NCBI GenBank assembly: GCA_043809585.1
Contig: JBDROZ010000095.1
Location: 1 to 33,341, forward strand
Direction of reading: 5' to 3'
DNA from: Candidatus Eiseniibacteriota bacterium
Lineage (GTDB): Bacteria; Orphanbacterota; Orphanbacteria; Orphanbacterales; Orphanbacteraceae
Length of the DNA stretch: 33,341 nucleotides
This document shows, one piece after another, positions 1 through 33,275 of the stretch. Made by a program: the position numbers and the translations under genes. Position 1 is the stretch's first letter. Every line of letters starts with the position of its first letter. The notes under the pieces were generated by a model. That model saw nothing but the letters and a program-made list of their open reading frames with translations, had not been told where the DNA came from and ran no database searches.

Positions 1-150
1 TCGGGAGGGGCCGGGGCATAACCGGGGAGCTCATGGAAGATCTGCGCACCGCAGATTGCGCGCGTCCGGAGAATGGGAGGGTTATGACCCGCCGCACGAC
101 GAGCGTCCCAGCCTGCCCCGATCCCCTCCCTCCTCCGATCCGCCCCCCCC
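1..150 (+). repeat. M1 structured repeat element, copy A (candidate ncRNA / MITE module); the window starts inside or at its 5' end
   Basis: Near-identical to 1871-2020 (about 5 mismatches in 150 nt). Homologous to 9561-9693 and to the reverse complement of 32985-33123. The 5' GGGAGGGGCCGGGGC can pair with the 3' GCCCCGAUCCCCUCCC. No reading frame is conserved across copies. Confidence 0.7.
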
Positions 151-177
151 CGCCGGCATGCTGGCCCCCCGGTCGGG

Positions 178-250
178 CTGAGTGCCGCCCGGTCCTCTGG
201 GCGGTGTATCGAAGCCTGTCCTGAGTAGGACCGAAGGTCCGTATCGAAGG
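178..250 (+). repeat. two tandem REP-like palindromic units (M2a 178-213, M2b 214-250)
   Basis: M2a is CUGAGUGCCGCCCGG-UCCU-CUGGGCGGUGUAUCGAAG and M2b is CCUGUCCUGAGUAGGACC-GAAG-GGUCCGUAUCGAAGG. The same flanks with different, still self-complementary stems recur at 2092-2142, 25129-25168, 32651-32686, 32881-32916 and 32917-32956. Confidence 0.65.
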
Positions 251-1870: not shown

Positions 1871-2020
1871 TCGGGAGGGGCCGGGGCATAACCGGGGAGC
1901 TCATGGAAGATCTGCGCACCGCAGATTGCGCGCGCCCGGAGAATGGGAGGGTACTCTCCCGCCGCACGACGAGCGTCCCAGTCCGCCCCGATCCCCTCCC
2001 TCCTCCGATCCGCCGCCCCG
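1871..2020 (+). repeat. M1 structured repeat element, copy B
   Basis: Positions 1871-1930 are identical to 1-60. The remainder has 1-2 nt changes per 10 nt, including a hairpin-preserving swap GGGUUAUGACCC to GGGAGGGUACUCUCCC. Confidence 0.75.
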
Positions 2021-2091
2021 CCGATTTCATATCATCGTCATCCTTCTGGAAGCAGGGGATCCAGGAGATCAGAATTCAATCCTCCGCGTTC

Positions 2092-2142
2092 GCCCTTCGA
2101 TACACTGCCCGGAAAGCTCGGCGGCACTCAGGACGAACGGGG
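2092..2142 (-). repeat. REP-like unit M2a in inverted orientation relative to M1 copy B
   Basis: Reverse complement reads CCGUUCGUCCUGAGUGCCGCCGAGC-UUUC-CGGGCAGUGUAUCGAAGGGCG, with the same conserved flanks and a different paired stem. Confidence 0.6.
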
Positions 2143-2437
2143 GGTGGTGGACGCGGCACGAATAACCGATTGCGATCGGGGGCCCGGAAAGGCGAACATC
2201 ATCCCTTCTCCTTCCTCCGAGCGGCAGTCCTTGCTGATCGTTCTGACCCACGGGCGGGTGGCCGCGACAGGGGTCCGCGAGACGCGCAGCCACCAAGCAC
2301 CAGATCCCGATCAACGTCTTGTCATCGAGAGCGAAACGCGCGGTTCACGAATTGCGGACGAAGGAAGTCAAGCGTGCGACTGGCGAGCATCGCAGCGGAC
2401 AGGAGCGGACAGGACCTGCCCGTCCGCGCATTTCATC

Positions 2438-9444: not shown

Positions 9445-9560
9445 TAACGACGAGCTCGCTCCGAATTACTTGGCTTCCTCGAACTCCTCTTCTGCATTCT
9501 GGAATGGTCGTGCTCGTGTGGGATACCCGTCTGGAGGGGGGGGGGGCGGGGGGTCCGGCT

Positions 9561-9693
9561 TTGGGAGGGATGGGGGCATAACCGGGGAGTTGTTAGCATC
9601 TTCCGCGACGCCACCTCTTACGAGGCCGGAGAATGGGAGGGTCCTCTCCCGCCGTGCGACGAGCGTTCAAGTCCGCCCCTCTATCCCTCCCTC
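9561..9693 (+). repeat. M1 structured repeat element, copy C (no adjacent M2 units); preceded by a G10-C-G6 homopolymer tract at 9535-9551
   Basis: GGGAGGGAUGGGGGCAUAACCGGGGAG...CCGGAGAAUGGGAGGGUCCUCUCCCGCCGUGCGACGAGCGU...GCCCCUCUAUCCCUCCC. The closing-stem substitution G to A at the 5' side is matched by C to U on the 3' side, relative to copies A, B and D. Confidence 0.7.
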
Positions 9694-9758
9694 AGCCGGC
9701 CCCCCGCCCCGCCGATGCGCGGAGCCGAGCCGGAAGCTCGGGCAGTGTCCGGCCCCGC

Positions 9759-25067: not shown

Positions 25068-25168
25068 CCGGGGGACACAATATCGGAACGGAGTTAAGTT
25101 TTGTGTCCCCCGGATTCCTACGATTCCGCCTTCGATACACCGGCCAGCTTGGCTGGCCGGCACTCAGG
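25068..25168 (-). repeat. composite repeat: M3 perfect hairpin (25068-25112) + REP-like M2a unit (25129-25168), downstream of thyX
   Basis: CCGGGGGACACAA-20 nt-UUGUGUCCCCCGG is a 13-bp perfect stem. Minus strand reads CCUGAGUGCCGGCCAGC-CAAG-CUGGCCGGUGUAUCGAAGG. This is the same architecture as 32608-32686. Confidence 0.65.
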
Positions 25169-25319
25169 GTGAACGGTGGAGGCAAGCGCGGCACAAACAA
25201 CCGCCTGCGATCGAGATCACGATTAGGCGGACACGCTTTCTCCCCCCTGAGCGGCAGTCTTCGCTGATTGCCTGCAACCACGGACAGGCCCCGCCCGTAC
25301 TCGACCTGCCCGCTGCCTT

Positions 25320-31045: not shown

Positions 31046-31394
31046 AGGGTCGGTTGTTCCGGCAGGGTCTTACCGGGTGCGAGTTCGGACGGGTCCTGTC
31101 GCCGATTGCCCGCTGCAGTGCTCGCCAGTCGCGCCATGTCTTTCTTGATTGCCCGGTGAGAACCGCGCCTTTCGATAGAGGCTCGGTCTTGTTTGTCGGG
31201 ATCGGGCGCTTGGTGGCTGCGCTCCTCGCGGGCCCCCATCGGCGCCACCCGCCCGTGGTTTCAAATGATCGGCAAGGACTACCGACAGGAGGGGGAGGAG
31301 AGGCGTTCGCCTTCCCGGGCCCCCGGTCCCCGACACCACTCGTGCCGCGCTCACCACTCCCCGTTCGTCCCGAGTGTCGCCCTCCCCCCGTCCT

Positions 31395-32607: not shown

Positions 32608-32686
32608 GGGAATGCGGGGGACACGAAACGAGTTCATGTCCCCCGCATTCCGCCGGAGGCCTGTCCTGAGTAGGGCCGGAGGTCCG
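32608..32686 (+). repeat. M3 hairpin (32608-32650, 15-bp perfect stem) + REP-like M2b unit (32651-32686)
   Basis: GGAAUGCGGGGGACA-cgaaacgaguuca-UGUCCCCCGCAUUCC. Then CCUGUCCUGAGUAGGGCC-GGAG-GUCCGUAUCGAAGGG. This is the inverted partner of 32881-32916. Confidence 0.7.
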
Positions 32687-32880
32687 TATCGAAGGGCTCG
32701 GGCGGAACCAGTCCCCCACTGATTTCAAAGTGACTGAGCTCAGATGAGCAACGCTCCGATTCATTCCAAAGTCCCAAGCGCGGTGAGACTAACGAGGGGC
32801 CCGCGGGCCCGGGTGGGCGAACGTCTCTCCCCCCCCCTTTTACGTGTGCGCGTGGTCCCTCGCCTTTCCCCGGTTCGTCC

Positions 32881-32956
32881 CCTTCGAGACAGACCTTCGG
32901 TTCTACTCAGGACAGGCTTCGATACACCGCCCGGCCTCCGGCCGCGGCACTCAGGA
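32881..32956 (-). repeat. REP-like units M2b (32881-32916) and M2a (32917-32956) of repeat copy D
   Basis: Minus strand reads CCUGAGUGCCGCGGCCGG-AGG-CCGGGCGGUGUAUCGAAG then CCUGUCCUGAGUAGAACCGAAGGUCUGUCUCGAAGG. Together with 32651-32686 these form 36-bp imperfect inverted repeats around a 194-nt core. Confidence 0.7.
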
Positions 32957-32984
32957 CGAACGGGGGGGGAATCGGTGGGGCGGT

Positions 32985-33123
32985 GGATCGGAGGAGGGAG
33001 GGGATCGGGGCAGACTGGGACGCTCGTCGTGCTGCGGGAGATAACCCTCCCATTCTCCGGCCTCGTACAGTTAGCGTTGCGGAGGCCGCCAACAACTCCC
33101 CGGTTGTGCCCCGTCCCCTCCCG
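32985..33123 (-). repeat. M1 structured repeat element, copy D
   Basis: Reverse complement reads CGGGAGGGGACGGGGCACAACCGGGGAG...CCGGAGAAUGGGAGGGUUAUCUCCCGCAGCACGACGAGCGUCCCAGUCUGCCCCGAUCCCCUCCCUCCUCCGAUCC. Its 3' half is near-identical to copies A and B. Confidence 0.75.
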
Positions 33124-33275
33124 GTGCCGGTCCGCCGACCCGCCGCGTGCGGAAGACCGACGGCTGTCCCCACTCAACCTTCTACTCCCCCCGGTTCACA
33201 GACAGAAAAGCCCGGCCGGGGATTCCCGGCCGGGCACGATCTCGATCGCGCGCTTCACGCGCGCCCGTTCTTCCC

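Follow-up and report, generated by a model that had tools for sequence, protein, structure and literature searches.

The stretch analysed here, 33,341 nucleotides of contig JBDROZ010000095.1 (assembly GCA_043809585.1) from a Candidatus Eiseniibacteriota bacterium and called the window below, carries seven intact copies of a short hairpin unit with invariant flanks and variable stems. The same core occurs in at least seven phyla and in viral contigs, and in other genomes inverted units bracket a gene for a minimal GIY-YIG nuclease of the UPF0213 family. [quoted passage not shown] We give this reading a probability of about 0.55.

Few non-coding features of bacterial genomes are as common as REP-type repeats. 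To our knowledge RAYTs are the only enzyme class tied to them, and the system is mostly proteobacterial. We found no prior description of the present hairpin family in Rfam 15, in family libraries or in the searchable literature, which is absence of evidence and not proof of novelty. Searching the literature for the unit as a sequence string matched only primers, and we found no publication that links GIY-YIG with REP, RAYT, REPIN (the hairpin-forming REP doublet), MITE or YhbQ.

The units in the window, four of type a and three of type b, are 30-38 nt long, lie on both strands and are all intergenic. Type a has the layout CTGAGT-G[stem]T-GTATCGAAG and type b the layout CTGAGTA-G[stem]C-GT(A/C)TCGAAG. 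The flanks are invariant; the stems differ yet remain complementary, and the four type a stems are all different. The hairpin-repeat motif is real and far above chance: CTGAGT-N15-35-GTRTCGAAG matched four times in the window against 0.00 expected, GTMTCGAAG eight times against 0.95, and all seven CTGAGT hexamers in the window lie inside units. The units occur in tandem (178-250 and 32881-32954) and as an inverted pair (32660-32695 with 32881-32916). Relative to the neighbouring genes four are sense, at three sites, and three antisense, at two sites.

The original prediction, made from the sequence of the window, had described eight palindromic units with invariant flanks. The palindromes and their flanks stand, but the number of intact units is seven: the type b unit that it listed at 32917-32956 is the type a unit at 32917-32954 counted twice, leaving three of type b and not four. 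Another of its coordinates, 32651-32686, was 9 nt off, the correct unit being 32660-32695. Its four type a units, with shared flanks and different self-complementary stems, were all recovered at the type a positions in Table 1. It was also right that the units are dispersed, intergenic and structure-conserving, and that, like REPs and bacterial interspersed mosaic elements (BIMEs), they are found as singles, tandems and inverted pairs.

We propose that the unit folds into an irregular hairpin on the strand that reads CTGAG...CGAAG. The predicted fold begins with a variable outer stem, in which CGTTCG(Y)C often faces G(R)(Y)CGAACG. Inside it lies the core, whose pairs C-G, T-A, tandem G.A/A.G and G-C are invariant, then a small junction of T(A) opposite GTAT, and finally a variable apical stem capped mostly by a C(GNA)G triloop. 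The case for this structure rests on comparison between copies, which supports it strongly, because the thermodynamic support alone is modest: with DNA parameters, two type a units had folding z-scores of -2.6 and -3.05 whereas all other units were close to 0, and only units with long stems were significant. Among 204 non-redundant units, the two pairs that flank the CTGAG/CGAAG core on the outside were paired in 193 and 188, against 136 and 123 with shuffled partners. In an alignment of 35 units of equal length, 88% of cells paired in the proposed structure against 35-48% with a slid partner, changes on both sides were seen in 10 of 14 pairs, and the observed score was reached in none of 500 shuffles. 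Upstream there is often a conserved CCGTTCG(Y)C whose pairing partner, G(R)(Y)CGAACGG, lies downstream; the window unit at 2087-2139 is an example. Pairing was kept in more than 200 further non-redundant copies, which answers the concern that the stems might turn out unpaired beyond the window.

Only one strand folds well. The apical closing pair of type a units was G.T (G.U in RNA) in 131 of the 204 units and Watson-Crick in six; the remainder are type b, with an extra A at this place. Triloops made up 86 of 159 apical loops (61 closed by C-G; 39 of the sequence GNA, as GCA, GAA, GTA or GGA), and GNRA and UUCG loops were nearly absent. Mini-hairpins of the form d(C-GNA-G) are exceptionally stable in DNA, and 5'-YGAR-3' is the context of sheared tandem G.A pairs in DNA, which both strands of the core fit. 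Mini-hairpins of the d(GCGAAGC) type were reportedly described by Hirao and co-workers in the 1990s. The apical loops of the units are likewise mostly C(GNA)G, and the smallest viral unit is CCTGAGTA-GCGAAGC-GTATCGAAGG; unlike the units, the d(GCGAAGC) mini-hairpins are isolated thermostable DNA hairpins and not a repeat family.

Rfam searches of the window ends and of 12 GIY-YIG loci, with gathering thresholds and with permissive E-values, gave nothing relevant. Several structural motifs were considered from the sequence and dropped: the K-turn, as the units have no 3-nt bulge followed by GA; the bulged-G or sarcin-ricin motif, as the A is missing from type a; a reverse-strand T-loop, as its closing pair exists only in the GGTTCGATAC variant; and the 11-nt tetraloop receptor, boxA/boxB and the RfaH ops site, whose resemblance is limited to partial strings. 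A variant hammerhead or other self-cleaving ribozyme was weighed as a further reading. The arrangement CUGA..GAG[helix]CGAA, in which CUGAG...CGAA resembles the hammerhead's CUGAUGAG...CGAAA and a tandem G.A likewise extends the helix, is common to both, and ribozymes also occur repeated in phage and bacterial intergenic regions. The units, however, have two covarying helices where the hammerhead has three around its CUGANGA / GAAA core and cleavage-site nucleotide; the catalytic nucleotides are gone, with G5, A6, G8 and the cleavage-site strand all missing, their orientation is independent of genes, and no Rfam ribozyme model matches even at E<=10. The resemblance is superficial, as had been suspected from the start, and we regard a ribozyme as very improbable.

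The family extends far beyond the window. A genome scan with the pattern CTGAGTGCCG-N8-25-GTGTATCGAAG, whose 21 specified bases (including GCCG as the first four of the type a stem) give a chance expectation of a handful, matched at least 112 stretches. Among the matches listed are Actinomycetes (Arachnia, Tessaracoccus, Microbacterium, Aeromicrobium), Bacteroidota (Schleiferiaceae, Sinomicrobium, Leeuwenhoekiella), alpha-, beta- and gamma-Proteobacteria (many Gallionella and Sideroxydans, together with Solimonas and Alteromonas), Dependentiae/Babeliaceae, Myxococcota, Anaerolineae, Dehalococcoidia (Chloroflexi) and Fibrobacteres. In viral contigs, the pattern CCTGAGTAG-N6-34-GTATCGAAGG found type b units in 41 contig stretches, with middles that are nearly all self-complementary; an initial pattern with 16 specified bases had given mostly chance matches and did bring up contig L080. 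When unit consensus sequences were compared by BLAST, annotated phages had no match and plasmids had only partial ones at chance level.

The smallest copies are 15-nt minimal units (CTGAG-CNNG-TCGAAG); types a and b are intermediate, and at the other extreme are nested copies, with a second TGAG...CGAA module inside the apical stem. The commonest form is the single 'half' unit. Nested, alternating and tandem-array arrangements are common among the copies elsewhere, as are convergent pairs with no open reading frame (ORF) between them.

This distribution also disposes of the idea that the similarity is due to local segmental duplication or to chance. A composite of about 250 nt, made of one longer repeat (Y, below) and two units, stands at both ends of the window in inverted orientation, as a duplication would produce. 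Against this, the chance expectation of the flank matches is about zero, all four type a stems differ, and hundreds of copies exist in unrelated genomes, in many phyla and in viral contigs. We therefore rejected this explanation, whose probability is negligible; nor is the motif restricted to this 33-kb region, a possibility that the original prediction had raised.

Syntenic relatives of the window lack the units. Syntenic Eisenbacteria contigs (79%, 69% and 67% protein identity) carried none in 14-21 kb, and the absence of units from the corresponding intergenic regions of these relatives points to a patchy distribution and to mobility. The contig of the closest syntenic relative (L356 1-113) stops 113 nt past the sulfatase stop codon, the point at which an X repeat (below) and a unit start in the window; this fits either an assembly break caused by the repeat or its absence there.

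Individual lineages show their own arrangements. Gallionellaceae loci L214, L246, L177 and L158 contain long palindromes of about 150 nt in which the motif is nested once per orientation and whose 21-bp outer arms (AAGGAAG...) covary. By eye, these outer composites, alone among the copies, are flanked by direct duplications of 3-4 bp (TTAA, TTAA, TTAT, CAA), which suggests transposition of the composite. The Schleiferiaceae chromosome OY970262.1 (L152, L155, L215) has tandem arrays with periods of about 100, 195 and 263 nt and one or two units per period. In the related IMG/VR viral contigs L080, L127, L131, L143 and L146, units lie 5-10 nt 5' of the start codons of homologous genes, where GAAGG(AGG) overlaps the likely ribosome-binding site; in L080 one unit is nested within the loop of another.

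The link to a nuclease gene comes from these other genomes. Units are densely clustered around an ORF of about 92 codons for a GIY-YIG protein in contigs of Dependentiae and in one of Alteromonas, and at L191 the GIY-YIG ORF lies between perfect inverted copies of ccgttcgtcCTGAGCTTGTCGAAGgatac. All four exact-protein homologue loci (in Gallionella, Nitrospira, an alphaproteobacterium and a metagenome) have both flanking units, a sense unit 15-45 nt before the start codon and an antisense unit just past the stop. The same reverse test, from gene to unit, also covered 80 metagenome loci found by a profile of the GIY-YIG family: a unit lay upstream in 49 of 78 (63%), downstream in 56 of 78 (72%) and on both sides in 40 of 76, against a background at the same loci of about 0.02 per equivalent window (about 2%). 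Aligning the left ends with the reverse-complemented right ends gave inverted repeats of about 30 bp that start sharply at CCG(T/C)TCG(Y)C, with unrelated DNA beyond. The outer flank of the window unit at 2087-2139 is the flank of these inverted repeats. As type a or b units like those of the window flank the GIY-YIG gene at several loci (L278, L283, L307, L295, L310 and L320), the units of the window are of one family with those that flank the gene.

GIY-YIG ORFs that are 81-88% identical in nucleotide sequence occupy unrelated flanks. Most units are far from any such gene, with six genes in the 0.81 Mb around type a units and none in the viral loci with units or in the window; this is the pattern seen with REPs and their single-copy RAYT. 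A scan of viral contigs for GIY-YIG found only two loci, both with a variant flanking unit. The variant cores, GGTGAGGAG[stem]CGTCTCGAACC or CCGAGGAG[stem]CGTCTCGAGGG (L363 1420-1460; L364 1385-1425 and 1790-1835), have the outer two pairs swapped from CC/GG to GG/CC and retain T-A, G.A, A.G and G-C. At the Nitrospira locus L263 (2845-2955) four 24-nt minimal units stand in tandem directly 5' of the GIY-YIG gene. In our protein alignment A3 the C-termini of P0044, P0073 and P0096 end in spurious 'HPSTSSGRT' tails, an annotation artefact that arises where gene callers run through the downstream antisense unit.

The protein itself is a bare nuclease domain, with Pfam PF01541 on all hits. Its signature residues Y11, Y20, Y21, G23, R31, H35 and E68 are invariant in the alignment, and on this basis the nuclease looks active. 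The nearest solved relatives are UPF0213 proteins (1zg2, E 5e-23; 1ywl, E 1e-18), and the unit-linked proteins form a distinct clade with the motif SYYTGHTD...KGW(S/T)RKKKEA(L). PADLOC, PHROGs and NCBIfam had no name for it. The named hits come from Babeliales, Chloroflexota, Gallionella, Nitrospira and Alphaproteobacteria and overlap with the taxa that carry units. E. coli K-12 yhbQ (L365, 3299966-3300268), a more distant member, lies 1.2 kb from ubiT-ubiU-ubiV. The ubiU and ubiV genes belong to the U32 family, like the peptidase gene that neighbours the GIY-YIG gene in Gallionellaceae, and this proximity may be an old synteny.

Slx1, YhbQ of E. coli and the B. subtilis protein YazA make up a family of UPF0213 GIY-YIG proteins (PMC7017083; PMC1564403), and the unit-bracketed protein is a minimal GIY-YIG domain of this family. 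Eukaryotic Slx1, the only member for which the activity is known, is a structure-selective endonuclease that acts on branched and hairpin DNA (PMC7017083). A folded repeat would be a structure of this kind and is a candidate substrate for the bacterial protein. In contrast to YhbQ, whose gene has no units, the unit-linked proteins are a separate clade, known here from sequence.

The original prediction likened the units to REPs or BIMEs with an unrelated consensus and suggested that a cognate RAYT may exist elsewhere in the genome; on this reading they would be classical REPs, specific to the genome or lineage and mobilised by a Y1/HUH enzyme. The likeness to REPs and REPINs is considerable: short, imperfect extragenic palindromes in many copies, as singles, tandems and inverted doublets, and a cognate nuclease gene that has inverted copies on either side, usually occurs only once and may hold a syntenic position, with most repeats remote from it. 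When the units are compared with the GTAG or CGTC tags of REPs (PMC3733652), type b has GTAG directly 5' of the stem, as GTAG-tagged REPs do, type a shows GTG, in which the G pairs with T, and CGTC is present in the frequent upstream CCGTTCGTC. However, the bracketed gene here encodes a GIY-YIG nuclease of the UPF0213/Slx1-like kind and not an HUH/Y1 enzyme, and the core does not change from phylum to phylum, unlike REP families, the majority of which are found in one or a few species (PMC3733652). No RAYT or other Y1 transposase was found in the window, recurrently among the ORFs in about 2 Mb around units, or among unit-bracketed ORFs. All-against-all clustering of the ORFs near units, which was dominated by spurious high-GC ORFs and Gallionella synteny, also gave no transposase. 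We know of no REP counterpart to the core's tandem G.A motif and 3' flank GTATCGAAG. Mobilisation by a RAYT is thus highly unlikely.

Other mobile elements share some of these features. Like MITEs and insertion sequences, the family has an autonomous-looking module of about 400 bp (the ORF and its terminal inverted repeats of about 30 bp), many ORF-less derivatives and a patchy presence in relatives. Unlike them it lacks a transposase of the DDE or serine/tyrosine kind, its terminal repeats each form a conserved hairpin, and half units predominate. As in the ends of IS200/IS605 elements and in integron attC sites, structure is conserved and stem sequence is not, only one strand folds well, and conserved unpaired or mismatched bases would be the features recognised; the consensus is unrelated, there is no R''/R' core and there are no TnpA guide or cleavage tetranucleotides, and the enzyme class is another. 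An attC site proper (RYYYAAC...GTTRRRY) was rejected on the flanks, CTGAGT and GTATCGAAG, and on a window that has neither integrase nor cassette array.

If the UPF0213/YhbQ-type nuclease takes the part that the RAYT has for REPs, it might recognise the folded core in single-stranded or extruded DNA and nick at or near it. The setting could be the template of the lagging strand, a transcription bubble or a cruciform. Host replication or repair synthesis could then copy or correct the hairpins, with one arm serving as template for the other, or only those copies that still fold would remain substrates. Either arm templating or such selection would account for stems that drift yet stay complementary around a fixed core. 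Tentatively, and with somewhat less than even confidence, we suggest that this is a previously undescribed and ancient repeat-nuclease pair, in which a minimal UPF0213 GIY-YIG protein recognises a tandem-G.A hairpin and drives or polices the spread of thousands of them in bacterial and phage genomes.

The nuclease could instead be a free-standing homing-type endonuclease for which the repeats, spread by some other route, are both target and habitat. The gene sits exactly between inverted units, as if inserted into one of the common ORF-less convergent pairs, no target-site duplication is seen, and similar ORFs have unrelated flanks, all of which fits such an enzyme. It would, however, be a nuclease domain alone, without the DNA-binding extension typical of classical GIY-YIG homing enzymes, its gene is single-copy and syntenic in Gallionellaceae, and the multiplication of the units would be left unexplained. 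We consider homing distinctly unlikely.

The other question is whether the units act as DNA or as RNA. As a structured RNA, the hairpin with its invariant internal loop would be an mRNA motif for protein binding, processing, stability or translation control, and the copies around GIY-YIG genes would be elements of untranslated regions. Invariant nucleotides that look unpaired, combined with covarying helices, are what functional RNAs show; only one strand folds well, with mismatches specific to the strand and a G.U closing pair under conservation, every copy in the window is intergenic, and in the five viral contigs where the unit ends 5-10 nt before the ATG, GAAGG(AGG) could be a Shine-Dalgarno sequence. 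Yet units between co-directional genes, as judged from crude gene calls, showed no bias towards the sense strand (40 sense, 42 antisense), and those in the window are mixed. Inverted flanking copies give one well-folding, inward-facing hairpin on each strand, so that the copy 3' of the GIY-YIG gene is antisense and enters the mRNA with pyrimidine mismatches. C(GNA)G triloops prevail over GNRA and UUCG, no Rfam family matches, and the syntenic intergenic regions of relatives are free of units. An RNA role thus seems unlikely. The lack of bias with respect to gene direction, the triloops and the unit-free relatives favour a DNA-level element, as do the similar GIY-YIG ORFs in unrelated flanks and the nested, alternating and tandem arrays; we weigh DNA against RNA at roughly three to one.

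Several points weigh against a DNA-level family with a GIY-YIG partner. The conserved G.T(U) closing pair and the viral units right before start codons fit an RNA role equally well, and the orientation counts depend on crude gene calls. The genome scan required stems that start with GCCG, and its 112 stretches are a lower bound. The 33,341-nt window has no GIY-YIG gene, the linkage to the partner being seen in other genomes, and the distant E. coli yhbQ has no flanking units. Any action of the nuclease on the units is something that we purely infer; a lone nuclease of 92 amino acids cannot carry out strand transfer, and the ends of the GIY-YIG module show no consistent target-site duplication. 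In Gallionellaceae the GIY-YIG gene is single-copy at a conserved syntenic site by a peptidase-U32 gene (L262, L264-L273), and from this conserved position its flanks could be regulatory.

Table 1. Hairpin units and longer repeats in the window (positions on the 33,341-nt stretch)
Feature	Position	Strand	Description
Type a unit	178-214	+	CTGAGT-GCCGCCCGG-TCCT-CTGGGCGGT-GTATCGAAG; first of tandem pair; DNA fold -12.5 kcal/mol, z -2.56
Type b unit	215-250	+	CCTGTC prefix: CCTGTC-CTGAGTA-GGACC-GAA-GGTCC-GTATCGAAGG; second of tandem pair
Type a unit	2087-2139 (core 2095-2131)	-	Outer stem CGTTCGTC / GGCGAACG
Type a unit	25130-25167	-	CTGAGT-GCCGGCCAGC-CAA-GCTGGCCGGT-GTATCGAAG; 150 nt 3' of thyX; DNA fold -14.1 kcal/mol, z -3.05
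Type b unit	32660-32695	+	Antisense, 36 nt 5' of transaldolase start; inverted partner of 32881-32916
Type b unit	32881-32916	-	3' flank is the GTCTCGAAG variant
Type a unit	32917-32963 (core 32917-32954)	-	Preceded by CCGTTCGTC; in tandem with type b unit 32881-32916
Decayed unit	31361-31381	+	At the end of an X repeat: CCGTTCGTC-CCGAGT-GTCGCC; 3' half gone
Decayed unit	9721-9748	+	After a Y repeat; hairpin CCGAGC/GCTCGG retained, flanks eroded
Y repeat	1-165(+), 1871-2035(+), 9541-9709(+), 32965-33156(-)		Copy 1-165 directly 5' of the 178-250 units; context, outside the unit
X repeat	2132-2430(-), 25168-25310(-), 31078-31381(+)		Copy 2132-2430 directly 5' of the 2095-2131 unit; context, outside the unit

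The units of the window are placed at the ends of two longer, window-internal repeat families (Table 1). The Y repeat, of about 170 nt, is predicted to be closed by the stem GGGAGGGG/CCCCTCCC; it has a branch that is conserved (CCGGAGAATGGGAGGG...CGACGAGCGTCCCAG) and an internal segment of about 35 nt that varies from copy to copy. It matched nothing in Rfam and could be an unknown non-coding RNA or another mobile repeat. The X repeat, of up to 300 nt, also had no match in Rfam; each of its copies terminates in a unit, and one lies 3' of the sulfatase gene, one 3' of thyX and one in the gap from the MFS transporter gene to the transaldolase gene. At 25068-25118 and 32611-32649, in both places 10-12 nt from a unit, there is a third hairpin family, with ATTCC after CGGGGGACAC...GTGTCCCCCG; in Rfam it gave only weak, chance-level matches to microRNA models. 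The window ends, 1-250 and 32881-33156, are inverted copies of one composite (Y, type a, type b) 32.6 kb apart, with the whole gene block enclosed between them.

The window has a GC content of 66% and ordinary chromosomal gene content: a sulfatase, a hybrid histidine kinase, a 5'-nucleotidase, an SDR (short-chain dehydrogenase/reductase), ArsP/Band-7 proteins, two radical-SAM enzymes, NifU, ThyX, an aldehyde dehydrogenase, a homoserine dehydrogenase, a Cys/Met enzyme dependent on pyridoxal phosphate (PLP), an MFS transporter, a transaldolase and a secreted beta-helix protein with a Por C-terminal sorting domain. The closest relatives of its proteins are from Candidatus Eisenbacteria (top match 84% identity, named matches 69-73%).

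The structured core of the unit is identical from Actinomycetes to Dependentiae and viral contigs, and it is physically linked to a minimal nuclease. If the nuclease acts on the hairpins, this clade of the widespread UPF0213 family gains its first substrate and a role. With a GIY-YIG partner, the 'domesticated nuclease plus hairpin population' lifestyle would have arisen twice independently, this system being the counterpart of REPIN-RAYT. Should this hold, annotation would gain a compact, conserved protein-DNA recognition module, and assembly breaks and false C-terminal ORF extensions would be explained.

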